This document shows, in pieces, positions 1-10,927 of a DNA stretch of 10,927 bases. The DNA comes from a virus, in the IMG/VR virus record IMGVR_UViG_3300045988_035751, positions 1-10,927 of that record; one strand, 5' to 3'. The notes under the pieces were generated by a model, which was not told the DNA's origin, did no database searches, and worked only from the letters and a program-made list of their open reading frames with translations. Both the position numbers and the translations under genes were made by a program. The first letter of the stretch is position 1. Each line of letters opens with the position of its first letter.

Positions 1-16
1 ATGCACAACAAACCCC

Positions 17-56
17 TTTTTAACATTTCCCAACACATTTTTAACATTCGCCAACA
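17..56 (+). repeat. Two direct repeats inside the ITR with a 21-bp period: TTTTTAACATT-NNN-CAACA
   Basis: 17..35 is tttttaacatttcccaaca and 38..56 is tttttaacattcgccaaca. Sixteen to 17 of 19 positions are identical. The pair is mirrored at 10872..10911 in the right ITR. Confidence 0.8.
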
Positions 57-59
57 GAG

Positions 60-91
60 TTTGGCACGCTTTTTGCATAGGCCGTGCCAAA
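60..91 (+). promoter_or_regulatory. Palindromic ITR element TTTGGCACG-N14-CGTGCCAAA containing a full match to the sigma-54 -24/-12 consensus (62..78)
   Basis: Half-sites at 60..68 and 83..91 are exact reverse complements. 62..78 reads TGGCACG-CTTT-TTGCA-T, which is TGGCACG-N4-TTGCW with the GG-to-GC offset of 12 nt. The mirror copy lies at 10837..10868. The function (promoter or origin/protein-binding site) is unresolved. Confidence 0.5.
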
Positions 92-132
92 CCTCCAAAA
101 TTAAAGAAAAAAAACACATCACAGCAAAACAA

Positions 133-153
133 TTTGGCACGTTATTTGTATAG
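133..153 (+). promoter_or_regulatory. Second, slightly degenerate copy of the terminal motif (TTTGGCACGTTATTTGTATAG)
   Basis: 135..150 reads TGGCACG-TTAT-TTGTA, with GT in place of GC at the -12 position. It has the same orientation as the ITR copy and lies 73 bp further in. Confidence 0.4.
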
Positions 154-198
154 AAAAAAATAAAAATTCGCCTTTTAAGATTTATTAAGACTAAAAAA

Positions 199-230
199 TT
201 TGCATAGAGTACACAAAGTTACTACCTTTG
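199..230 (+). promoter_or_regulatory. Bacteroidota-type promoter (-33 TTTG, -7 TAnnTTTG) for the early genes
   Basis: TTTG at 199..202, a 20-nt spacer, then TAccTTTG at 223..230. The extended form TTTGCA...TTTGCAAT is shared with the promoter at 7207..7238. Confidence 0.55.
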
Positions 231-317
231 CAATATCAAAATAAAACAATAAAGCAATTTGTATCATATACATACGACTTGCTACAGGGTAAATTATTTA
301 CTAAATAAAAAGGTAAC

Positions 318-338
318 GCCCCACCTAACCAGTGGGGC
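318..338 (+). promoter_or_regulatory. GC-rich stem-loop in the 5' leader (GCCCCAC-ctaacca-GTGGGGC)
   Basis: A 7-bp perfect stem, 6 of 7 pairs GC, with a 7-nt loop. It ends 17 nt upstream of the ATG at 355. No T-tract follows on the + strand. Confidence 0.35.
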
Positions 339-354
339 AACCAACAAAATAACA

Positions 355-606
355 ATGGCAACCACCCCACAAATGTACGATGAGATTGCACGTATTTTAC
401 GCGTAACTCGTAACAATGTTGAGTATGAAGCAGAGCGTAACAAATCGCAATTACTTTGCGATGTTGCGACAACGTTAGGCAATTTGGCTACTTTAGTAGA
501 CAATATAATCACCGATATAAAGGCGCGCGAAATCTCGCAAAAGAAAGAGAGCGAGCGAAACAGCGCCAATAACTTCTACATGGAGCGTTTCACAAAGCAA
601 CTTTAG
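355..606 (+). CDS. Small helical early protein (83 aa), function unknown
   Basis: The ORF track gives 259..606. I prefer the internal Met33 (ATG at 355, MATTPQMYDEIARIL...) because 259..354 spans the leader hairpin and encodes an atypical H/C/Y-rich peptide. The start at 259 cannot be excluded. Confidence 0.6.
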   Translation: MATTPQMYDEIARILRVTRNNVEYEAERNKSQLLCDVATTLGNLATLVDNIITDIKAREISQKKESERNSANNFYMERFTKQL

Positions 607-622
607 AACCCTATTATATAAC

Positions 623-662
623 GTTTCACGTGAAACAAAATACAAATTGTTTCACGTGGAAC
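623..662. promoter_or_regulatory. Pair of operator-like palindromes, GTTTCACGTGAAAC and GTTTCACGTGGAAC
   Basis: 623..636 is a perfect 14-bp palindrome. 649..662 is the same sequence with one change. The centres are 26 bp apart and both lie in the 72-bp intergenic gap before the gene at 679. Confidence 0.5.
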
Positions 663-678
663 ACTAACAAAAACCGAA

Positions 679-885
679 ATGAAAAAGAAGATTTTTAAGA
701 ACGTAGGCCAATACATTTTTTTGGTGTATGCCTTTGCATTTATTGGTTGCTTACTCTACCTTTGCGCAATCCTACAAAGTTGCTCAATGTACAGACAAAC
801 CGACATTAACGGCAAAGCCACGATTGTAACCACAGACACAACGTACATCAATCATAACACTTTACTTAAATATCCAAAGAAATGA
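679..885 (+). CDS. Small secreted or lipoprotein-like membrane protein (68 aa)
   Basis: MKKKIFK n-region, a hydrophobic core YIFLVYAFAFIGCLLYLCAIL, and Cys residues in lipobox-like contexts (FIGC, LQSC). Its stop overlaps the next start (ATGA at 882..885). Confidence 0.6.
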   Translation: MKKKIFKNVGQYIFLVYAFAFIGCLLYLCAILQSCSMYRQTDINGKATIVTTDTTYINHNTLLKYPKK

Positions 886-1052
886 ACGAAGAACAAAACG
901 TATTTGATGAAGCGATATTTACCGCTTGCACATCATTAGGCCAACTTATGACCACCAAAGAAGTTAACGCGAATACTCGCACACTTCTTAAAATCTCGAA
1001 GTTTAGAAACTTCCTGATTACATTAGGCAACGAACATACAGCTAACAACTAA
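882..1052 (+). CDS. Unlisted 56-aa ORF (MNEEQNVFDEAIFTACTSLGQLMTTKEVNANTRTLLKISKFRNFLITLGNEHTANN)
   Basis: Hand-translated with no internal stop. It falls below the 60-aa cutoff of the ORF track. It fills an otherwise 178-bp gap in a densely packed genome and is coupled to the upstream gene by an ATGA overlap. Confidence 0.45.
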   Translation: MNEEQNVFDEAIFTACTSLGQLMTTKEVNANTRTLLKISKFRNFLITLGNEHTANN

Positions 1053-1063
1053 AGTACTAAGTT

Positions 1064-1417
1064 ATGACAAGTTTTGCAGAAACGTATAATAAGGGCAATA
1101 TTAACCCTTTTAAGTTTGACCTTAAAGGCTATGAATTTACTAGCCTTAAAGAGTTATACAACAGCGACCCCAACAAAGTACACGCGCTTGACGGGTTTTA
1201 TTTTACCCGTGGTAAGTTCGGTGTAAAAGTCGTGGTTGTGATGTCAGACGTAAAAAAGCGTGTTGATATGCCTATATACCTAACAAAGGTATTTAATGAC
1301 ATCGTAAATAACACGGATGCAGTAAATGACATCAAAAACGGCAAAGTTGGTTTTGTGGTACGAAAGTACGAGAGCCACGGCCGCAACTGCCACACTATTA
1401 GTTTTAAGGACATCTAA
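1064..1417 (+). CDS. 117-aa beta-rich protein; candidate phi29 p5-type ssDNA-binding protein (function tentative)
   Basis: Clean ORF that ends just before a terminator. Its size, its position upstream of the TP-polymerase pair, and the C-terminal pattern KVVVVMSD...GKVGFVVRKYESHGRNCHTISF resemble phi29 SSB as I recall it. Confidence 0.7.
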   Translation: MTSFAETYNKGNINPFKFDLKGYEFTSLKELYNSDPNKVHALDGFYFTRGKFGVKVVVVMSDVKKRVDMPIYLTKVFNDIVNNTDAVNDIKNGKVGFVVRKYESHGRNCHTISFKDI

Positions 1418-1430
1418 CAAGTAACACATT

Positions 1431-1468
1431 TAGGTAGATAGAATATAACTATCTACCTATTTTAATTT
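1431..1468 (+). terminator. Intrinsic terminator or attenuator after the early gene block
   Basis: An 11-bp perfect stem TAGGTAGATAG (1431..1441) / CTATCTACCTA (1449..1459) with a 7-nt loop, followed by TTTTAATTT (1460..1468). Confidence 0.7.
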
Positions 1469-1475
1469 AAGCACT

Positions 1476-2114
1476 ATGCCTAACAAGATAGGATACAAAC
1501 AGAGTGTATTTACAGCAACTCAACGTACAGAGTTAAGGCAGGATATAATACAAAGTGTTGAGAGTAGCCCCGAACTCCGTAAGGAGGTAAGGCGCGTATT
1601 TCAACAAGCAAATAGACGCATACAGAATATCGAAGAAAAAGGCCTTTTAAGCCCCGCGGTAACAGCACTAAACAAAGGCGATATTAAAGGCTTTAGCAAA
1701 TTTTCTGTCAGTGGTCAAAGTTGGGACGAAATAAAAACAGAGTACGCAAAGGCAGTATCTTTTTTGCGTCAACCTACGAGTACAGCGCAAGGCACACGAA
1801 CGTATAACGACCACCTAAAAACCGCGTACGGCCTTACTGACAAAGAATTTAATTTAATGGCTGATAAGCTAAATGAAAAGCTAACAAGTTTAAGCGATAG
1901 CGATTTTGTCGAAAAATACCTAATGAGGTATAAAGACTTCACGGGCGACCTAGAGCAAAGCGCAAGGGACGCGAGCGAGCAAATTGAAAGTGAAGCAGTA
2001 AGTCTACAAAACGCGATAAATAGCAATATTGAAAGCGAGGCCAACAAATTAACTAACGAAGTCGAAAGCGAGATAAGCAGCATACTAGACGAATTTAATA
2101 ATTTCGGACTATGA
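1476..2114 (+). CDS. Candidate terminal protein (212 aa), the primer for protein-primed replication
   Basis: It lies immediately upstream of the PolB gene and is translationally coupled to it (ATGA at 2111..2114), as TP genes are in phi29-like phages. It has a basic N-terminal part (RKEVRRVFQQANRRIQNIEEKG), a segment SWDEIKTEYAKAVSFLRQ resembling phi29 TP FNKWKEQASSFTNR, and an acidic Ser-rich C-terminus. Confidence 0.6.
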   Translation: MPNKIGYKQSVFTATQRTELRQDIIQSVESSPELRKEVRRVFQQANRRIQNIEEKGLLSPAVTALNKGDIKGFSKFSVSGQSWDEIKTEYAKAVSFLRQPTSTAQGTRTYNDHLKTAYGLTDKEFNLMADKLNEKLTSLSDSDFVEKYLMRYKDFTGDLEQSARDASEQIESEAVSLQNAINSNIESEANKLTNEVESEISSILDEFNNFGL

Positions 2115-4297
2115 AAAAGGTGCATTATGAGCAACAAAGTGGTATTTATAAGGCAACCGACATAAAAGATATTTTGCAGTTGGCCGTAAATGACAAAAAC
2201 GTAATAGGCAATAACAAAGGGTGTAAATTTTACAACGTCCCTTGTGCCTTTGATATCGAAGTAAGTAGCTTTTACCGAGACGGAGACGGCAGCACATACA
2301 CGTACGAGCAGTGCACCAAATTAGGTGTAAAAATGGAAAAGTGTGCTATTATGTACGTGTGGCAATTTGGTATAAATGGGTACGTAATAGTTGGCCGTAC
2401 ATGGGACGAGTTTACATCCATGTGTAACACGATAGCAAAAACGTTGGAGTTATCCACTAACAAAAAACTAATTGTGTACATTCATAATCTATCTTACGAA
2501 TTTCAATTTTTGCGTACTTTGTTTGATTGGGAGAAAGTTTTTAGCATTGATTTGCGCAAACCCCTATACGCTACTACAACTATAGGTATAGAATTTAGGT
2601 GTAGCTACTTGTTAAGCGGTTATAATTTGGCAAAGTTAGGCGAACAGCTACAAACGTACAAATGCGCAAAAATGGTTGGAGATTTGGACTACACCAAAAT
2701 ACGACACACCCAAACAGATTTAACCCCTAAAGAGTTGATGTATTGCGTGAATGATATAAGAGTGGTTATGAACTACATACAAGAGCAATTAGAGCAAAAC
2801 AAGTTAATAACAAGATTGCCCCTAACCAAAACAGGGTATGTCCGTAAGCATTGCCGCAAAGCGATGTTAAGTAAAAATGTAAACGGCAAAACCGCAAGAA
2901 ATTGGCAGTGTATAAACTTAATCCACTCGCTAACTATCAACGGCCTACACGAATTTAATATGTTGCAAAGGGCGTTTAGTGGCGGCTTTACGCACGGCAA
3001 TGCTAACCACATAGATGAAATTTGTGAAGACGTTGCAAGTTACGATTTTACAAGTAGTTACCCATATGTTATGGTATCGGAAAAATTCCCCATGAGTAAG
3101 GGGGTACGAGTGAACCCCCGAAACATGAAAGAATTTGAATACTACATAAGTAAGTACCTTTGTATCTTTGACATTGAATTTACCAACATCTTTGCAAAAG
3201 AGTTGCAAGATAACCCAATAAGTGTAAGCAAATGCTTTGTCAAGGTAAATCACGTGGAGAATAACGGGCGGCTTGTTTGTGCAGCAAAGGTAGCCACTAC
3301 TATAACAAACATAGACTACAACATAATACGCAACTTTTACACGTGGGGAGGTGTTCGTATCGGTGCAATGTATTGTTATAAGGCCGACTATTTACCAACT
3401 GATTTTGTACGTACAATCTTGGATTTGTACGAAAACAAAACAAAATTAAAAGGCGTGCGAGGAAAAGAAGTGGAGTACCTCAATAGTAAGGAAATGTTAA
3501 ATAGTTGCTATGGTATGTGTGTTACTAACCCTTTGCGCGATGATTTTGTGTATAATGGCCAATGGGACGAAAACACACTAACAGACAGCGAAAAGGCCGA
3601 AATGTTGCAGAAGTACAACGAAAGTAAAAACCGCTTTTTGTTTTATCCGTGGGGGGTATTTGTAACCGCGTACGCAAGGCGCAATTTATTTACGGCAATC
3701 TATGATGCAAAGCAAGATTACATTTACAGCGATACTGACAGCATAAAGTTAAAGAATGCAGCAGCACATAAGCGGTATTTTGATATGTACAACAATGTAG
3801 TATATAACAAATTAAGAGCAGCGTGCAAACATCACAACATAGACTTTGCCAAATGCGAACCCGAAACAATTAAGGGAGTTACTAAAACGTTAGGCGTTTG
3901 GGACTACGAAGGGACATACAAACGCTTTAAGACGTTAGGCGCAAAGAGGTACATGATACAGGAAGAAAACGCGCTAAACGTAGGCGGCAAAAGTTATGAA
4001 TATAGTTTGACAATAAGCGGTGTAAACAAAAAAGCGGCTATCCCTTATTTAGTTAAAAAGTATGGTGATGATATATTTAACGCCTTTACAAATTACATTG
4101 AATTTCCGTGCGAGGCCACAGGGAAAAATATACATACATACATAGACTACAAAATAACGGGTGAAGTTACCGACTATCAAGGTAAAAAGTGTACATTTGC
4201 CGAAAATACGGGTGTACACTTAGAGCCAACAAGTTATAACTTATCTTTAAGTATAATGTACCTTAATTACCTAAAGGGTATAAAGCTAAAAGATTAA
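2111..4297 (+). CDS. Family-B DNA polymerase, protein-primed (phi29 gp2-like), 728 aa
   Basis: Exo I is FDIE (D48/E50, 2252..2260). Exo II is HNLSYE (residues 125-130). Exo III is YCVNDIRVV (211-219). RAFSGGFTH precedes motif A DFTSSYP (312-318). Motif B is KEMLNSCYG (460-468). Motif C is YSDTDS (539-544, 3725..3742). The KxY motif is GAKRYM (610-615). PWGVFVTAYARR parallels phi29 PMGVFITAWARY. Confidence 0.97.
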   Translation: MKKVHYEQQSGIYKATDIKDILQLAVNDKNVIGNNKGCKFYNVPCAFDIEVSSFYRDGDGSTYTYEQCTKLGVKMEKCAIMYVWQFGINGYVIVGRTWDEFTSMCNTIAKTLELSTNKKLIVYIHNLSYEFQFLRTLFDWEKVFSIDLRKPLYATTTIGIEFRCSYLLSGYNLAKLGEQLQTYKCAKMVGDLDYTKIRHTQTDLTPKELMYCVNDIRVVMNYIQEQLEQNKLITRLPLTKTGYVRKHCRKAMLSKNVNGKTARNWQCINLIHSLTINGLHEFNMLQRAFSGGFTHGNANHIDEICEDVASYDFTSSYPYVMVSEKFPMSKGVRVNPRNMKEFEYYISKYLCIFDIEFTNIFAKELQDNPISVSKCFVKVNHVENNGRLVCAAKVATTITNIDYNIIRNFYTWGGVRIGAMYCYKADYLPTDFVRTILDLYENKTKLKGVRGKEVEYLNSKEMLNSCYGMCVTNPLRDDFVYNGQWDENTLTDSEKAEMLQKYNESKNRFLFYPWGVFVTAYARRNLFTAIYDAKQDYIYSDTDSIKLKNAAAHKRYFDMYNNVVYNKLRAACKHHNIDFAKCEPETIKGVTKTLGVWDYEGTYKRFKTLGAKRYMIQEENALNVGGKSYEYSLTISGVNKKAAIPYLVKKYGDDIFNAFTNYIEFPCEATGKNIHTYIDYKITGEVTDYQGKKCTFAENTGVHLEPTSYNLSLSIMYLNYLKGIKLKD

Positions 4298-4323
4298 TGT
4301 TCAACGCGAAACAATTTTGAACA

Positions 4324-5454
4324 ATGAAGAAAGAAACAAATAAGAAAGAAACTATAAAATTTTACTCCCTCGCCAACATATTAAACAAAAAGGCAGATTA
4401 TAATATAATATTCGGCGAGCGCTCAAACGGCAAAACATACGCTACTTTGGCGTATGGCCTAAAGAAGTACGTACAAACTGGTGAGCAAATGGCCTATATA
4501 CGTAGGTGGCGCGAGGATTTACGCGGCAAACGTGCAGAAAATCTGTTTACTAACCACGTAGCAAACGGGTACATTGAAGAAGTAACAAAGGGTGAATTCA
4601 ACGCGGTTTTTTACATTGGTGGTAAATGGTATCTAGCAAAATACGACTCCGAAAAAAAGAAGTATGTACCACAAACTACACCTTTTTGCTATGGTTTTTG
4701 TCTGTCAGAGCAGGAACACGAAAAAAGCAGCAGTTACCCCAACGTTACAACAATTGTTTTTGATGAGTTTTTAACTCGTCGCTACTACCTACCCGATGAA
4801 TTTATGCTATTTATGAACTTGTTAAGCACCATAATAAGACAGCGCGACAACGTTAAAGTTTTTATGTTGGGTAACACAATAAACAAGTTTTGCCCCTACT
4901 TTACGGAAATGGGCCTAAAGCAAGTAACTAACATGGAGCAGGGCGCTATCGACATATATAAGTTTGGGCAACATGGTGCAGTAGTAGCGGTGGAGTATTG
5001 CAGTACCATTGTTAAACAAAAAGCAAGTAATAAATATTTTTGCTTTGACAATCAAAACCTTGAAATGATAACGGGCGGAAAGTGGGAAATGTCCGTATAT
5101 CCACACCTACCAACGAAGTACAAGCCTAGTGATGTTTTATTTGTGTATTACATTGTTTTTAACGAATACATTTTGCAGGGCAACATAATACAGCACGGGG
5201 GCGAAAATTTTACATACATACACGTAAAAACCACCCCAATAAAAGACCCCGACAACGCGCTAATATATAGCCTAAGCATGAACGGAAAGCCAAACTACAA
5301 GCGCAAATTAATAAGTAGTGCAACGTACTTAGAGAGCCAAGTTGCGAGGTATTTTGCCACTGATAAAGTATTTTACCAAAATAACGAAGTTGGCGAGATT
5401 GTAAGAAATTATTTAATTACTTCTGCAAAAACCAACATTGTAAGTGTAAAATAA
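4324..5454 (+). CDS. DNA encapsidation ATPase (phi29 gp16-like), 376 aa
   Basis: Walker A is GERSNGKT (residues 31-38, 4414..4437) in the context DYNIIFGERSNGKTY, which parallels phi29 gp16 LNFVIGARGIGKSY. Walker B is TIVFDE (4750..4767). Confidence 0.9.
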   Translation: MKKETNKKETIKFYSLANILNKKADYNIIFGERSNGKTYATLAYGLKKYVQTGEQMAYIRRWREDLRGKRAENLFTNHVANGYIEEVTKGEFNAVFYIGGKWYLAKYDSEKKKYVPQTTPFCYGFCLSEQEHEKSSSYPNVTTIVFDEFLTRRYYLPDEFMLFMNLLSTIIRQRDNVKVFMLGNTINKFCPYFTEMGLKQVTNMEQGAIDIYKFGQHGAVVAVEYCSTIVKQKASNKYFCFDNQNLEMITGGKWEMSVYPHLPTKYKPSDVLFVYYIVFNEYILQGNIIQHGGENFTYIHVKTTPIKDPDNALIYSLSMNGKPNYKRKLISSATYLESQVARYFATDKVFYQNNEVGEIVRNYLITSAKTNIVSVK

Positions 5455-5456
5455 CT

Positions 5457-5468
5457 TTTGTATATTTG
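5457..5468 (+). promoter_or_regulatory. Possible -7 promoter box TAtaTTTG (weak candidate)
   Basis: TATATTTGCA at 5461..5470 resembles the -7 boxes at 223 and 7231, but there is no clean TTTG about 20 nt upstream (only cATTG at 5436..5440). Confidence 0.25.
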
Positions 5469-5491
5469 CAGTATTAATAACACCTTACAAA

Positions 5492-5698
5492 ATGGATATT
5501 ACACAAGTTACACAAATGATTTCAAACGTTGGCTTTCCAATTGCTATGTGCTTAATTGTATTTTATTACATGACAAAGCACGACGAGCTGCACAAGGAAG
5601 AAACCGACAACCTACGTACAACTTTGGAGGATAACACAAATGTACTCAGCGAGTTATCAACCCTTATAAAAACTTTGACAAATGGCAAAGAAAGATAA
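5492..5698 (+). CDS. Small single-pass membrane protein (68 aa), YvrJ-like; possible holin or lysis factor
   Basis: An N-terminal TM segment ISNVGFPIAMCLIVFYYM is followed by a charged helical tail. The GFPI-containing pattern recalls the YvrJ small-membrane-protein family; this is from memory and unverified. Confidence 0.6.
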   Translation: MDITQVTQMISNVGFPIAMCLIVFYYMTKHDELHKEETDNLRTTLEDNTNVLSELSTLIKTLTNGKER

Positions 5699-6572
5699 CT
5701 TATACATAAAGTATCAAGAAGAAATAAAGAACAAAGACAAAAGCGTAAATGGCTACATTCGCAAAATGTTAGCCATAACACAAGCAATGTTTGTGTACAA
5801 AGGTTTACCCGAAACCTTACCACAAAGCAACCTTGAAAACCTTTTGCAGACCAACGGCAATGTTTTTGTAACAGAGGTAGGCGGCAAATTGTACGCTTTT
5901 ACTGGCGGACTTGGGGGTGTCCCCAACGCGTACAACGAAGCCACAGAATACATTGTAAGTAACCCCTATTTGCAACTAAACAAGTCGTACAAAATAGACG
6001 TTGAAGGCGTCCTAATTAAAAATGATAGTGGAGCAAACAGCCTTTTGCCAATCTTTGGTAAATATGGTGTGTTGTGTAGTGATACGCTTTTGTCGCTTAA
6101 CACGTGTTCTGTGTTGTCTCGTATCACCATGTTAATAAGTGCGAGCGATGACAAGACCAAACAAAGCGCGGACGATTTTGTTAACAAAATCATGCAAGGC
6201 GATTTCTCCGTGATTGGTGAAAACGCATTTTTTAAGGGGGTGAACTTGCAAAGTATCAGCACCCAAAGCGCCAACCAAATAACGCAACTTATTGAGTTAT
6301 TACAATACTTCAAGGCGAGCGCGTTTAACGAAATAGGGCTGAATGCAAACTACAACTTAAAGCGCGAGCGGTTGAATACAAGCGAGGTGCAAATGAATGT
6401 GGATGCCCTCAACCCCTACGTTGATAATATGTTGCAAGAGCGCAAAAAGGCAGTGGAAAAAATAAACGCTATGTTTGGCACTGAAATAAGCGTTGAACTT
6501 GGAAGCAGTTGGGCAATCAGAAAGAAGAAAAATAAAACACAAAACGAAGACGATGAAGATAATAAAAAATAA
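5682..6572 (+). CDS. Head-tail connector / portal (phi29 gp10-like upper collar), 296 aa
   Basis: Four segments parallel phi29 gp10. LPETLPQSNLENLLQTNG matches LPPTINPSFLEKSIHQFG. YNEATEYIVSNPYL matches YNQATVFRAANPVY. KRERLNTSEVQMN matches KKERMVTDEVSSN. ERKKAVEKINAMFGTEISVEL matches [21 protein letters not shown]. The phi29 sequence is recalled from memory. Confidence 0.9.
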   Translation: MAKKDNLYIKYQEEIKNKDKSVNGYIRKMLAITQAMFVYKGLPETLPQSNLENLLQTNGNVFVTEVGGKLYAFTGGLGGVPNAYNEATEYIVSNPYLQLNKSYKIDVEGVLIKNDSGANSLLPIFGKYGVLCSDTLLSLNTCSVLSRITMLISASDDKTKQSADDFVNKIMQGDFSVIGENAFFKGVNLQSISTQSANQITQLIELLQYFKASAFNEIGLNANYNLKRERLNTSEVQMNVDALNPYVDNMLQERKKAVEKINAMFGTEISVELGSSWAIRKKKNKTQNEDDEDNKK

Positions 6573-6717
6573 TACTTCTAATATTGGCGAAAATGGCGCT
6601 GAACAGGAGACAGAAACGGAGACAGAAGTAACAGACACCGAAACGGACACCGAAACGGACACCGAAACGGAAACAGAAACGGACGAAGAAAACGAAGAAG
6701 AAAATGAAAATAATTGA
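6553..6717 (+). CDS. Highly acidic 54-aa protein with a (Thr-Glu/Thr-Asp)n tract and an E/N-rich tail
   Basis: The ORF track gives 6493..6717. I prefer the start at Met21 (ATG at 6553), which cuts the overlap with the portal gene to 20 nt. It is the only coding explanation for the 131-bp gap at 6573..6703. The sequence is MKIIKNNTSNIGENGAEQETETETEVTDTETDTETDTETETETDEENEEENENN. Confidence 0.5.
   Translation: MKIIKNNTSNIGENGAEQETETETEVTDTETDTETDTETETETDEENEEENENN
6607..6681 (+). repeat. In-frame tandem repeat with 6-nt periodicity (GAN-ACN); the core is three perfect copies of GACACCGAAACG
   Basis: Perfect 12-nt units at 6634..6645, 6646..6657 and 6658..6669, flanked by variants gagacagaaacg and gaaacagaaacg. 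Confidence 0.9.
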
Positions 6718-7273
6718 CCTTTACCCCGACCCGAAACACGGCCTATTTACGGAGGTTTTTAAAGTTAACTATCCAACGGAATACGCGGCAATATTTGGCA
6801 ACCTTGATAGTGTCGGACTTGATACGCTTGTACTACTCAACTACAGCGAGCGCGAGTGCATTAACACCATAACACAAGCCAACGCAAATGAGTACATAAA
6901 AAATATAATTGCGTTGAGTGTTAACAATTGGGTACGCGTGGCAAATGCCTACAATGCCCAATATGATGTACTTAACCCTATACAGCAGCAGACAACGCGC
7001 GAGGATAAGACAACAGAAAACGCCAACAATAACAATACAAATGTAGCGTCTAACAAACCATATAACGCAACGGATTTTGTTGAGTACGACAAAGATAGTA
7101 CCACATACGACAATACACGTACTAACGATGTTACGAGTACAACAAAAGTAGTTGGTATTGGCTCAAAATCGCCAACGGACGAACTCACAAAAGAAATTGA
7201 ATTTAATTTGCAAAATTGGCGCAAAAGCATTATTTTTGCAATTATAAATGATATAACTAAATTAATATACTAA
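6704..7273 (+). CDS. 189-aa virion-module protein; candidate lower collar/adaptor or scaffold (function unresolved)
   Basis: Clean ORF between the portal and capsid genes. It has an N/T-rich central segment and a hydrophobic/helical C-terminus (ELTKEIEFNLQNWRKSIIFAIINDITKLIY). I recognise no diagnostic motif. Confidence 0.75.
   Translation: MKIIDLYPDPKHGLFTEVFKVNYPTEYAAIFGNLDSVGLDTLVLLNYSERECINTITQANANEYIKNIIALSVNNWVRVANAYNAQYDVLNPIQQQTTREDKTTENANNNNTNVASNKPYNATDFVEYDKDSTTYDNTRTNDVTSTTKVVGIGSKSPTDELTKEIEFNLQNWRKSIIFAIINDITKLIY
7207..7238 (+). promoter_or_regulatory. Bacteroidota-type promoter driving the major capsid gene
   Basis: TTTG at 7207..7210, a 20-nt spacer, then TAttTTTG at 7231..7238. 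The geometry and the TTTGCA...TTTGCAAT extension are identical to the promoter at 199..230. It lies 38 nt upstream of the ATG at 7276. Confidence 0.6.
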
Positions 7274-7275
7274 CA

Positions 7276-8448
7276 ATGGAAGTACAACAAATTTACACAC
7301 TGATAAATTCAGTATCTAAAGAGGTTTTAGGTAACTCCGCACTTGTTAGCGAGGATTTAACGGGGCTTGTCGACCTTGGTAACGAGGTTTTCAACCAAAA
7401 CGCGGTAGACAATTACGTAAAATCACTTGTTAACCATATTGGTAAGGTTGTTTTTGTAAATCGCCCCTACGCAGGTAAAATCCCCTCTGTACTTATGGAT
7501 GCCTGGGAGTTCGGAAGCGTCCTTGAAAAGATTAGCGCGGACTTACCCGAAGCCGAGGAGAATAAAAGTTGGGAACTAACGGACGGCACCGACTACTCGC
7601 AAGATGTATTCCACAAGCCACAAGTTACGGCAAAGTTCTTCAATTCTAAGGTAACTTTTGAAGTCCCCGTTTCAATCACCGAACGCCAGGTAAAAGAAAG
7701 TTTTTCTAACGCTGAGCAACTTAACGCGTTTCTATCGATGATTTACAACGCGGTTGAAAAGTCTATTACCATTAAGACTGATGCGTTAATTATGCGTACT
7801 ATCAATAACATGATAGCGCAAACTTTAATAGCTGATAGCACGGCCTTTGGTGGTGGTGATTCTGTAGACTACACAACCGCTAGCACCGCCCGTTGCGTTA
7901 ACTTGTTGAAGTTGTACAACGATAATAAGGGTACTACTTTGACGGCCGAAAAGGCACTCACAGACCCCGATTTTATCAAGTTCGCAAGTTACACGATTGG
8001 TTTGTACACTGATAGACTTGCAAGTATTTCGAGCGTCTTCAATATTGGCGGTAAGCCACGCTTTACACCGCGCGAAAACTTGCACGTTGTGTTATTGTCA
8101 GACTTTGAAAAGGCCGCCCGTGCTTACTTGTACAGCGATACGTACAACAAAGAGCAGGTACTATTACCTAACGCGGAAAGTGTTCCATTTTGGCAGGGCA
8201 GCGGTACAAAGTACGATTTCGCGAGCACGGCACACATCACAATCAAGGAGACGGGCGGCAAACCCGTTGATATTAGAGGTGTGTTAGGTGTTATGTTCGA
8301 CCGCGATGCCTTAGGCGTGTGCAACCTCAACCGCCGCGTAACTACTAACTATAACGCAAAGGCCGAGTTCTTTAATAATTACTATAAGTTTGATGCGGGC
8401 TATTTCAATGACACGAGCGAAAACTTTGTAGTTTTCTTCGTTGCTTAG
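7276..8448 (+). CDS. Major capsid protein (phi29 gp8-like, HK97-fold lineage), 390 aa
   Basis: Three segments parallel phi29 gp8. NYVKSLVNHIGKVVFV matches DFITSLVDRIGLVVIR. LNAFLSMIYNAVEKS matches FESFVSSIINAIYNS. The C-terminal FFNNYYKFDAGYFNDTSENFVVF matches [23 protein letters not shown]. The gene is flanked by its own promoter and terminator. Confidence 0.92.
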   Translation: MEVQQIYTLINSVSKEVLGNSALVSEDLTGLVDLGNEVFNQNAVDNYVKSLVNHIGKVVFVNRPYAGKIPSVLMDAWEFGSVLEKISADLPEAEENKSWELTDGTDYSQDVFHKPQVTAKFFNSKVTFEVPVSITERQVKESFSNAEQLNAFLSMIYNAVEKSITIKTDALIMRTINNMIAQTLIADSTAFGGGDSVDYTTASTARCVNLLKLYNDNKGTTLTAEKALTDPDFIKFASYTIGLYTDRLASISSVFNIGGKPRFTPRENLHVVLLSDFEKAARAYLYSDTYNKEQVLLPNAESVPFWQGSGTKYDFASTAHITIKETGGKPVDIRGVLGVMFDRDALGVCNLNRRVTTNYNAKAEFFNNYYKFDAGYFNDTSENFVVFFVA

Positions 8449-8469
8449 TTGTTAATGTTGTTGTTGATA

Positions 8470-8500
8470 GGTGGTGTAATATACACCACCTTTTTTATTT
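8470..8500 (+). terminator. Intrinsic terminator after the capsid gene
   Basis: A 9-bp stem GGTGGTGTA (8470..8478) / TACACCACC (8482..8490) with a 3-nt loop, followed by TTTTTTATTTT. Confidence 0.8.
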
Positions 8501-8507
8501 TACTACT

Positions 8508-8948
8508 ATGATATTATATAACTATAAGGGGCAACCTAACACCATAAGCAAAGCACTTACCCCGTTGGGTACGCTTAACGTTGCTTTGCGTCCCGAACTC
8601 AACGTGCATAATCCAACGTTAAAAATACAAATGCCGCCTAATATGTACGGGTTTAATTACGTGTACATTGAGGGATTCGGAAAATATTACTTTGTAGACA
8701 ACATTAGATACATAGGAGGGCAAACGTATTTACTCGCTTTGTCGCTTGATGTATTACAGACATACAAAGATGTTATACTGCAAAGTACCGCGCTAATAGT
8801 GGAGAGCGACAACGCAAACCGCGATTTGTCGGTAAATAGTAACGTGTTTAATGTTTTTCCTAAAACGGAAATATTAAACTTTCCTACTTCAAAACTCTTT
8901 GACACAGAAGGTAGTATTATAATGGTAACACTCAAAGGCAATAAATAG
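8508..8948 (+). CDS. 146-aa protein resembling the N-terminal domain of the phi29 gp9 tail knob (tail tube)
   Basis: FNYVYIEGFGKYYFVDNIRYIGGQTYLLALSLDVLQTYKDVILQSTALIVES parallels phi29 gp9 [58 protein letters not shown], recalled from memory. The TAG stop at 8946..8948 lies 1 nt before the next ATG. Confidence 0.75.
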   Translation: MILYNYKGQPNTISKALTPLGTLNVALRPELNVHNPTLKIQMPPNMYGFNYVYIEGFGKYYFVDNIRYIGGQTYLLALSLDVLQTYKDVILQSTALIVESDNANRDLSVNSNVFNVFPKTEILNFPTSKLFDTEGSIIMVTLKGNK

Positions 8949-8949
8949 T

Positions 8950-10773
8950 ATGGCAGATATAATAACAAACCAAATCCTACATACAACATTCACGTATACG
9001 GAGAGTGCCGGGGCGTATAATATAGTTAGTACCGCTGACACTGGTTTTTTGTTCGACAGCGCAACCACACCACGCGCCCGATTTGATGACGATTTTGGAG
9101 GGGGTAGCGTAAAGGGCAAAATATCTACAGACCTAAAAACGTGCAAATTTAGTGGTGTTAGCGGTACAAATATACGTTTAACTGGTGCTACTAAAGTAGA
9201 CCCCGATTCCCCCGCAGAACCAACGATAACAAACAATATAGTAAACACTACCTATACATATAGTGTAAGCGGTGGTGTACATACCATTGTAGTTACCGCT
9301 GATACTGGGTATCAATTCAACACCGCGCCTACTTGTGCGTACACTGATAGTTTTGGAGGTACCTCGACCGCTAACGGGGTAATAAGTACGAACAAAAGCA
9401 AGGCTACTTTTACCATAGATGACACTGCCAAAAATAGTGCTTTTAACCTTAACGGGGAGGTTGCCGAAAGTACGCCAACTATTACCATAACAAATAATAT
9501 AGAAGGCACATACGCTACATGTACGTACGATAATGGCACTTTCAACGTAACTATAAAAGGCACACAAAGCGGCTATGTTATACAAGCGGCCAACGTAACG
9601 TACACAGATACAGGCGGTGTCTCGCATACTGATGATATGACCATACCGAGCAGCGACACCGCAACCATAGCAATAACAAATGTAAATACTTCTGTGTCCG
9701 TGGTTATTAATGGTACTTATATTAAGGCTATACCCGTTAAAAATACTTTGTATAATTGTACATACGAAAATATACCAACGTATTACACCCCGAACGACAA
9801 AGTAAACGTTACAATACACGCAAAAGAGGGTAGCAAGTTTACAAGCGAGACAGACCCCCCCGAAATACGTTACACTGATGAGTTCGGAGGGGTACAATAC
9901 AAACGTTTCACGATTAGCGATGACGGCAAACAGGGTAGTGTTACACTTGATATCGCAACAGAATGCCCCAAAACTGAGTACATCGAATTTCGTGGAGGGG
10001 CGCAAGTTGAGGTACAGCCAAGTATTAAAAATTATGGCTCTATTAACGTGTATGTTGTAACGTTAGATAACCTTGACGCATTTAGCAAAAAGCGTTACTT
10101 CACGGAAAGCGGTACGTTTATAACGTACGAGCAAGATTTAAGCGAGTATATAAACCGAATTAAGCGTATTTATACGCACATACCAACAAAAGGTACTGAC
10201 CGAATAAAATGCGGCAACTATGACACCGAGATAAATGCCGAGCTACCCGAAAAGGATATAATAACCCTTGATTTTGGAGGTATCACAATACCACGCAAAG
10301 ATAACACCACACTTGACAAAGATATGATAATAGAGGTATTTTTGCCGTTCGTGGGTATTGTTAGTTTGTCTTCTGATTATGTCGGTAAAACTGTAAAGTT
10401 GGTGTACGATATAAATGTAATAAGCGGTGACGGGGTTTGTAAATTGTTGGATAGCAACGATTTACCCATACAATTGCATAACGTACAACCTAATACGGAT
10501 ATATTGTACACGACTTACAACACGTTCGTAATAGGTAGTGACAGGTGGGACGCTCAAAATTTATATGGCCTTGAGCCGTTTGTGCGGCTGAATTACTTTA
10601 CTAATGAGTACAGCGATACACGCGGCAATGACTACAAAAAAGTTGTACTTTCGCAATGTGCAAAAGGTTTTTATAAGTTTGACGAGATTGTAAATAATGA
10701 TATAGACAACGTGCCGAAAAGCGAATACAACGAAATTGTTAATTTATTGCAAAGCGGTGTATTTATAGATTAA
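8950..10773 (+). CDS. 607-aa tail protein with four N-terminal tandem beta-rich repeat domains and a gp9-like tail-knob C-terminal region
   Basis: It is the longest late ORF. The C-terminus [34 protein letters not shown] parallels the phi29 gp9 C-terminus [58 protein letters not shown] resembles the gp9 segment [25 protein letters not shown]. Confidence 0.88.
   Translation: [607 protein letters not shown]
8962..9999 (+). repeat. Four tandem protein-level repeats of about 80-88 aa within the tail gene
   Basis: R1 is 8962..9189 ([35 protein letters not shown]...FDDDFGG...LTGA). R2 is 9226..9459 ([35 protein letters not shown]...YTDSFGG...LNGE). R3 is 9481..9720 ([36 protein letters not shown]...YTDTGG...INGT). 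R4 is 9736..9999 ([12 protein letters not shown]...[14 protein letters not shown]...YTDEFGG...FRGG). Confidence 0.75.
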
Positions 10774-10779
10774 CGGCCT

Positions 10780-10798
10780 ATGCAAATAGCGTGCCAAA
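10780..10798 (-). promoter_or_regulatory. Inner right-end copy of the terminal motif (minus-strand TGGCACG-CTAT-TTGCA-T)
   Basis: The reverse complement of 10780..10796 is tggcacgctatttgcat, a full match to TGGCACG-N4-TTGCW. It faces inward and lies 70 bp from the right ITR copy (10850..10866). Confidence 0.4.
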
Positions 10799-10821
10799 TG
10801 CTTTTGGTACGCTATTTTTTT
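10790..10821 (+). terminator. Probable intrinsic terminator of the late operon, built from two terminal-motif half-sites
   Basis: CGTGCCAAA (10790..10798), a tgct loop, then TTTGGTACG (10803..10811). This gives a 9-bp stem with one G-T/G-U position, followed after 3 nt by a T7 run (10815..10821). It begins 17 nt after the tail gene stop. Confidence 0.55.
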
Positions 10822-10830
10822 GTTTCTTCG

Positions 10831-10927
10831 TGGAGGTTTGGCACGGCCTATGCAAAAAGCGTGCCAAACTCTGTTGGCGAATGTTAAAAATGTGTTGGGA
10901 AATGTTAAAAAGGGGTTTGTTGTGCAT
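10831..10927. repeat. Right inverted terminal repeat (97 bp, perfect)
   Basis: Exact reverse complement of 1..97. Confidence 0.97.

Follow-up and report, generated by a model that had tools for sequence, protein, structure and literature searches.

The two ends of the virus record IMGVR_UViG_3300045988_035751 from IMG/VR, of which positions 1 to 10,927 were analyzed (the window, 10,927 bp), carry tandem, inward-facing copies of a short box that matches the -24/-12 promoter element of sigma-54, an alternative sigma factor. We suggest, with moderate confidence and on comparative sequence evidence, that these boxes are host-type sigma-54 promoters supplementing sigmaA-type early promoters. Directly observed are the sequence match, its conservation, orientation and position, its likeness to host promoters, and a terminator of which one box forms an arm. 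Sigma-54 promoters fire only with an ATP-driven activator, and a lytic phage is not expected to put such activator-dependent promoters at its entry points. Our literature search turned up no prior description of phage terminal repeats or early regions with promoters of the sigma-54 class; what came nearest was a phage that encodes a sigma-54-type regulator. Early promoters at the ends of phi29-like genomes are a known kind of element; what appears to be new here is the sigma-54 class, the tandem copies, and the likeness to stress promoters of the phylum to which the host probably belongs.

The window is a nearly complete linear phage genome with inverted terminal repeats (ITRs) that are 96% identical, and by comparison with close relatives, which start with AAATATGCAC, it is short of about 4 terminal nt (AAAT) at each end. 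A search for TGGCACG-N4-TTGCW (12 specified positions, at most one mismatch) gave six matches, all at the two genome ends, against 0.13 +/- 0.34 expected from 200 shuffles. Four of them, the inward-facing boxes L1, L2, R1, and R2 (Table 1), lie where a first-pass annotation of this DNA had located them, with the within-end spacings of 73 and 70 nt and the single change in L2 that it had reported. L1, R1, and R2 have the exact -24/-12 spacing, GG at -24, and GC at -12, and L2 has GT at -12. The annotation's further statement that all copies point inward holds for these four; the remaining two matches, each with one mismatch, face outward at 74-89(-) and 10839-10854(+), because the palindrome TTTGGCACG-N14-CGTGCCAAA generates them. 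Its description of R2 as an independent copy outside the ITR has to be revised, as 107-153 and 10778-10824 are 77% complementary, and L2 and R2 therefore belong to the inner, decayed stretch of an ITR that was once longer.

The box recurs across a large phage family. At least 340 relatives of the window phage are found in IMG/VR, and family counts were made on 80 of them, with capsid proteins 76-97% identical to that of the window. The strict consensus occurred 156 times facing inward at the termini (<400 nt from the end), never outward, and 17 times internally, and a relaxed pattern allowing C or T at two positions gave 269 inward and again no outward copies. At least one box was present in 65 of the 80 loci, and six long box-less loci probably start inside the repeat, their contig ends being missing. 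Each end has one to four boxes, spaced by 58, 48, or ~70 nt, and the inner ones vary in number and spacing. The outermost box carries GC at -12 in 46 of 49 ends and the innermost carries GT in 32 of 49. A logo of 167 distinct copies showed an information peak over TT-TGGCACG-(G/C)-TTTTT-G-(C/T)-(T/A) with flanks that are much less conserved, the exception being TTTTAACA, which is conserved at -23 to -16 of most boxes. Comparing the ITRs of relatives, a check that the first-pass annotation had proposed, thus showed the -24/-12 box to be conserved across the family and the palindrome arms to be conserved only in the window's own clade.

Copies also occur away from the termini. An internal box (TGGCACGAAATTTGCA) with a perfect core on the minus strand is found in 16 of the 80 relatives, ~5 kb from either end, in intergenic DNA past the packaging ATPase gene (e.g., ~5328-5343 in locus L022 and ~5337-5352 in locus L035); it is absent from the window. 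This box faces the early genes and lies within a plus-strand hairpin (dG -21 to -24.5) whose flanks co-vary through compensatory changes. The internal copies indicate that the element is portable and not bound to termini. Among other viral contigs the extended motif was matched only once, and this match was dismissed as chance, being inside a coding region with a Shine-Dalgarno site. In the cultured relative Vibrio phage K58 g2 (L084, OZ195715), TTGGCACGATTATTGAAC occurs at 7126-7141(-) and 7384-7399(+), ~70 nt from each terminus and upstream of ordinary sigma-70-like promoters; it is -24-like, with GA in place of GC at -12, and may represent either a remnant of the element or a separate occurrence of it.

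From three features of these genomes we infer that the host of the window phage is probably a gut Bacteroidota species: none of the 13 window genes has an upstream Shine-Dalgarno site; the -7-type element TAnnTTTG is abundant in the window (36 occurrences versus 17 expected; for the composite TTTG-N17-23-TAnnTTTG, six versus 1.0 expected); and TAnnTTTG stands 5' of the capsid gene, with 79 occurrences in 93 loci at distances that are mostly conserved within clades. TAnnTTTG is the motif of the Bacteroidota primary sigma factor, and the two promoters of this type in the window (199-230 and 7207-7238), together with its recurrence ahead of the capsid gene in most relatives, are the chief pointer to the phylum. 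The boxes are confined to genomes without Shine-Dalgarno sites and rich in TAnnTTTG, and none was found in the relatives that use Shine-Dalgarno sites, the cultured Astrithrvirus genomes included. A review of phi29-like phages has predicted a Bacteroidales-infecting member from faecal metagenomes (PMC11476376). Host assignment by the bin labels of metagenome-assembled genomes was uninformative, as 13 mis-binned contigs carried contradictory taxa.

To compare the boxes with promoters of such hosts, groES loci were fetched from gut Bacteroidaceae and Bacteroidales and their upstream boxes were read. The phage box nearly matches Bacteroides groES promoters (TTTGGCACGCTTTTCGCA): the Bacteroides box TTTGGCACGCTTTTCGCAGAAAG, 76 nt ahead of the ATG, is almost identical to L1 (TTTGGCACGCTTTTTGCATAG), and the Bacteroidales box TTTGGCACGTAGTTTGTAAG closely resembles L2 (TTTGGCACGTTATTTGTATAG). 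Two more groES upstream boxes read TTTGGCACACTTTTCGTTGAAAG and TTTGGCACATTTTTGGTAAG. A metagenome scan for TGTCAG repeats beside TTGGCAC recovered a dnaK box (TGGCACAAGGTTTGTT) and an hsp20 box (TGGCACAAAGTTTGCT); the -12 element was present in 15 of the 120 hits against a chance rate of 2.3%, and most of the 120 are chance matches. GT at -12 is found in host groES and dnaK promoters as well, so that it is normal in Bacteroidota, and what was the chief objection to the inner phage boxes at the level of sequence falls away.

Sigma-54 control of groES, dnaK, grpE, clpB, htpG, and lon is reported in Bacteroidota (PMC9723704, PMC12316311). In Flavobacterium psychrophilum, mapped starts with typical -24/-12 elements precede groES-groEL, lon, dnaK, grpE-dnaJ, htpG, clpB, and skp (PMC9723704), and in B. 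thetaiotaomicron GroES and GrpE are reported to be sigma-54-dependent (PMC12316311). These heat-shock promoters (groES-groEL, dnaK, grpE, hsp20; F. psychrophilum motif SM4, PMC9723704) have in common with the phage boxes the -24 element TTTGGCAC(G/A), the -12 element T(T/C)G(C/T), the spacing between the two with its richness in T, and the occurrence of GC and GT variants at -12. The host promoters are, however, single copies behind TGTCAG direct repeats, whereas the phage has its boxes in tandem within terminal repeats and with TTTTAACA rather than TGTCAG upstream. Two to six such direct repeats stand upstream of the host groES, dnaK, and hsp20 boxes (L099-L110, L113, L130-L193), and we regard them as a candidate enhancer for a Bacteroidota heat-shock activator. 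One host locus (L099) also has four AAACAATAT(T/A)GTTT palindromes ~450 nt upstream of groES.

The position of the boxes likewise fits promoters. By capsid protein (55-60% identity), the nearest cultured relatives of the window phage are the ~11-kb Astrithrvirus group, with hosts in Salmonella, Pectobacterium, Acinetobacter, and Vibrio. These phages have early genes at both ends and inward sigma-70 promoters inside their ITRs, as in Pectobacterium phage DU_PP_III, which has TTGACG-17-TAGAAT at 189-217 of a 219-bp ITR, and the gut clade has its sigma-54-type boxes at the equivalent place. The phi29 promoters C2 and A2 (PMC11476376) and the Astrithrvirus promoters resemble the boxes in being near the ends, inward-facing, and ahead of early genes at one or both ends; they differ in belonging to the sigma-70/sigmaA class, which needs no ATP-dependent activator, whereas in the window phage the boxes are of the sigma-54 class and a separate sigmaA-type promoter lies further in. 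We also considered whether the box itself could be a Bacteroidota sigmaA promoter (-33 TTTG/-7 TAnnTTTG); it contains TTTG but no TA at the required place, and the true matches are the two listed in Table 1.

Gene order bears out this orientation. The left boxes precede early genes (open reading frames, ORFs), and most relatives have a leftward, minus-strand gene at the right end behind the boxes there (e.g., 10941-11294 in locus L015). The ITR-proximal gene may stand at either end and is always behind boxes, the first left ORF of locus L014 being homologous to the right-end ORF of L015 (E = 4e-13). In the major clade the ITR is ~285 nt long and contains two to four boxes followed by two GTTTCACGTGGAAC palindromes, and past the ITR each end has its own -7-type TAnnTTTG box and then a gene. 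In the clade of the window the ITR is shortened and the right-end gene is missing, which is why R1 and R2 face no gene; the first-pass annotation had read the lack of a minus-strand gene at the right end as favoring an origin role, an argument that loses its basis in most relatives. ORF 1064-1417 of the window was considered as a relocated right-end gene and rejected, as no similarity was found. ORF 355-606 has no detectable similarity to the ITR-proximal proteins of L014 and L015, though its position and upstream promoter are the same.

The two palindromes between ORF 355-606 and ORF 679-885 (Table 1) would, as RNA, form a 16-bp hairpin (dG -22.6, z -8.75), and their conservation is family-wide. 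Such palindromes lie inside the ITR in the major clade, 39 and 81 nt downstream of the innermost box (219-276 in L015). Their function could be that of an operator, of an enhancer, or of an RNA element.

The right end of the window adds a second use of a box. Both inverted repeats that the first-pass annotation described (60-68/83-91 and 10790-10798/10803-10811) are present, and the right one proved to be part of a 15-bp stem (10784-10798/10803-10817) with one G.U pair and a 4-nt loop, followed by a U-run. This structure (dG -20.7 kcal/mol, z -4.25) starts 11 nt past the stop codon of the last gene and is predicted to be a textbook intrinsic terminator of the plus-strand late operon. With ordinary rho-independent terminators it shares the GC-containing 15-bp stem, the 4-nt loop, and the U-run directly past the last gene; unlike them, it has one arm that doubles as a perfect sigma-54 box on the opposite strand. 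The hairpin and U-run are conserved in loci L002-L009 with compensatory substitutions, and L006 keeps the stem though its -24 element is changed to TGGCGC, so that selection at the R2 site now maintains the terminator and not the box. At the outermost box, the downstream complement of TTTGGCACG agrees at 8-9 of 9 positions in the window's clade, and L011-L014 add one context with 8/9; members of the major clade reach no more than 6/9, a level that looks like background. Folding gave -18.4 kcal/mol (z -3.6) for the left ITR palindrome and -3.9 kcal/mol (z -0.25) for the L2 region.

Of the two readings offered in the first-pass annotation, sigma-54 promoters or a dimeric site marking origins, the former gains strong comparative support from the conserved inward box, its likeness to host groES and dnaK promoters, and its place at the position of the relatives' sigma-70 promoters. 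Sigma-54 binding, activation, and transcripts are what we infer from this, and they would unfold as follows. After genome entry, the tandem boxes of both terminal repeats would be bound by host RNA polymerase with sigma-54, opening of the complex would require an AAA+ enhancer-binding protein of the host, and transcription would start ~12 nt past the GC or GT, near 88 and 161, and proceed inward into the early genes. Early expression would thereby have, besides the sigmaA-type promoter at 199-230, another input that is probably linked to stress, and the right-end boxes would serve the leftward early gene of most relatives in the same way. In the window, the leftward gene would have been lost, R1 would remain only as the ITR mirror of L1, and R2 would have been recruited as an arm of the late-operon terminator; any transcripts that R1 or R2 gave would run antisense to the tail gene, the start predicted for R2 being ~10770. 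The activator may act from sites of another kind, candidates being the TTTTAACA/AACA repeats, which have a phase of 10-11 nt, and the GTTTCACGTGGAAC palindromes with their TGT-N10-ACA-like outline, or it may act from solution.

Several observations weigh against promoter function. No enhancer-binding protein, whether with a Sigma54_activat domain or another AAA+ activator, was recognized among the window proteins, and the host-type TGTCAG repeats were sought in the phage ends and are absent. Between the boxes and the first gene, the window has a sigmaA-type promoter and the major clade has the -7-type TAnnTTTG, so that early expression can be explained without the boxes. In this window, R1 and R2 have no gene to serve. 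The 'N4' spacer is conserved as strongly as the -24 and -12 elements, which exceeds what sigma-54 contacts need, and the C at -12 is conserved at only 62%, though host promoters use GT too.

As neither an activator nor a host-type enhancer was found, the boxes may bind sigma-54 holoenzyme without firing, as a decoy, a roadblock or insulator, or an aid to replication, which we consider possible but unlikely. As roadblocks, closed complexes would protect the protein-primed origins and reinforce nearby terminators; as a host-factor site, the box would stimulate replication of the ends, much as host transcription-factor sites do in adenovirus ITRs. Such non-firing roles would account for the missing phage activator and TGTCAG enhancer, for the sigmaA-type elements that stand between the boxes and the first genes, for the 2-8 sites per genome that look to be of high affinity and all have a T-tract spacer, for the distance of exactly 65 nt between the first box and the terminal AAA in 42 of the 49 ends with a recognizable terminus, and for the repeated placement of boxes in plus-strand hairpins where rightward transcription should stop (the right end of the window and the internal site of relatives). 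They sit less well with a position and orientation that match the early promoters of cultured relatives, with the variable number and spacing of the inner boxes, and with the terminator of L006, which persists without an intact -24 element, so that the hairpin is independent of the box; titration of sigma-54 would, moreover, tie up core polymerase that the phage needs. A fuller version of this idea, which we hold to be rather doubtful, makes the boxes enhancer-less high-affinity landing pads, of which, as the genome replicates, 4-8 per copy would drain sigma-54, blunt the host chaperone and heat-shock response, insulate the origins, and back up adjacent terminators; the boxes would then be a DNA decoy against an alternative sigma factor and not promoters.

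The preference of the first-pass annotation was for an origin or end-recognition role of a dimeric site, or a dual role; in this reading the motif would mark replication origins for a phage-encoded or other non-sigma protein, and its likeness to sigma-54 promoters would be coincidental. The NFI and Oct-1 sites of adenovirus ITRs are auxiliary protein sites of this sort at protein-primed origins. They, like the p6 sites of phi29, resemble the boxes in being elements within the ITR, the first box lying at a set distance from the terminus, and p6 is a precedent for repeated sites near protein-primed ends (PMC11476376). The strongly conserved spacer, the phased TTTTAACA/AACA repeats nearby, and the dyad symmetry within the window's clade fit such a site, yet the second arm is not conserved beyond that clade, the element itself is asymmetric and strictly oriented, the inner copies are variable in both number and spacing, and perfect intergenic copies far from the ends occur in 16 of 80 relatives. 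It is also very unlikely that chance would yield agreement with all 12 consensus positions and, beyond them, with the TT flank and T-rich spacer of host groES promoters. ORF 355-606, whose product had been put forward as a possible binder, is specific to the window's clade (10 of 94 loci) and hence no candidate for the family at large. The arm limited to one clade, the terminator role of the right repeat, and the internal copies thus speak against the dimeric site, and we regard an origin-marking protein site as improbable. The 65-nt offset, which is the sole remaining pointer to an end-related role, may reflect a lack of indels in a conserved ITR. Least probable, and in our view very unlikely, is that the boxes matter mainly as hairpin arms in RNA or DNA (terminators, or structures on displaced single strands) with an incidental likeness to promoters. 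The right-end hairpin and U-run, the internal hairpin of relatives with its compensatory flank changes, and the fold of the left ITR palindrome all fit this proposal, but L2 and most boxes of the major clade have no partner arm, the L2 region hardly folds, the spacer and -12 element are conserved despite lying in loops, and the identity to host sigma-54 promoters is left unexplained.

If the boxes do work as sigma-54 promoters, widespread and very small gut phages would link part of their early program to the host sigma-54 system, infection would be tied to the stress state of the host, and rpoN or a specific activator would be a candidate host factor for phage sensitivity. The family would also illustrate a swap of promoter class on a change of host phylum within a phi29-like lineage, and for genetic tools it offers a compact natural set, with GC as well as GT forms, of putatively strong Bacteroidota sigma-54 cores.

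Table 1. Coordinates of the boxes and other features in the 10,927-bp window.
Feature	Position	Strand	Remarks
Box L1, TTTGGCACGCTTTTTGCATAG	60..80, core 62-77 (TGGCACGCTTTTTGCA)	+	0 mismatches; predicted start ~88
Box L2, TTTGGCACGTTATTTGTATAG	133..153, core 135-150 (TGGCACGTTATTTGTA)	+	1 mismatch (GT at -12); predicted start ~161
Box R1	10848..10868, core 10851-10866	-	0 mismatches; ITR mirror of L1
Box R2, TTTGGCACGCTATTTGCATAG	10778..10798, core 10781-10796 (TGGCACGCTATTTGCA)	-	0 mismatches; L2 homologue; predicted start ~10770
Second palindrome arm, CGTGCCAAA	83-91 within 74..91	-	With outward one-mismatch box 74-89; specific to the window's clade
Predicted intrinsic terminator of the rightward late operon	10784..10824	+	Box R2 is the 5' arm
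Left ITR	1..113	none	~4 end nt (AAAT) absent from the contig
Right ITR	10815..10927	none	From repeat comparison
Two 21-nt direct repeats, TTTTTAACATTYSCCAACASA	17..58	+	AACA every 10-11 nt; upstream of box L1
Bacteroidota sigmaA-type promoter, TTTG-N19-TACCTTTG	199..230	+	Upstream of ORF 355-606; present in L014 too
Bacteroidota sigmaA-type promoter	7207-7238		Upstream of the capsid gene
Two GTTTCACGTGRAAC palindromes (GTTTCACGTG(A/G)AAC, TGT-N10-ACA outline)	622..665		Between ORF 355-606 and ORF 679-885
Putative terminal-protein gene	1476-2114	+	
Family-B polymerase, protein-primed type	2111-4297	+	
gp16-type packaging ATPase	4324-5454	+	
Connector	5682-6572	+	
phi29-type capsid protein	7276-8448	+	

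All credible genes of the window are on the plus strand, and their proteins point to a phi29-like, protein-primed podovirus (Table 1). The polymerase, ATPase, connector, and capsid genes are syntenic with those of Astrithrvirus. No near-identical DNA was found among the deposited phages of INPHARED. Neither an endolysin, a holin, nor a pRNA was recognized in the window genome, and a scan of the ends against Rfam for a phi29-type pRNA or other RNA family gave a single sub-threshold, unrelated match. ORF 679-885 resembles a small membrane protein or lipoprotein. At 6588-6690, between the connector gene and ORF 6704-7273, CGAAACGGACAC and its variants form a tandem repeat with a 12-nt unit, and read in the frame of ORF 6493-6717 it gives an acidic run rich in E, T, and D.

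A few further signals were noted. On the minus strand, 96-128 is an outward match to the Bacteroidota sigmaA pattern (TTTG-N21-TAATTTTG) that would give a short transcript towards the left terminus and may be chance. Also on the minus strand, 317-339 reads as an intrinsic terminator for leftward transcription, being a GC-rich hairpin of 9 bp with a U-rich tract behind it; it lies immediately upstream of ORF 355-606, would halt antisense transcripts ahead of the left promoter region, and was not seen in L014. On the plus strand, terminator-like hairpins with U-runs lie at 1431-1459, between ORF 1064-1417 and ORF 1476-2114, and at 8469-8491, immediately past the capsid gene.

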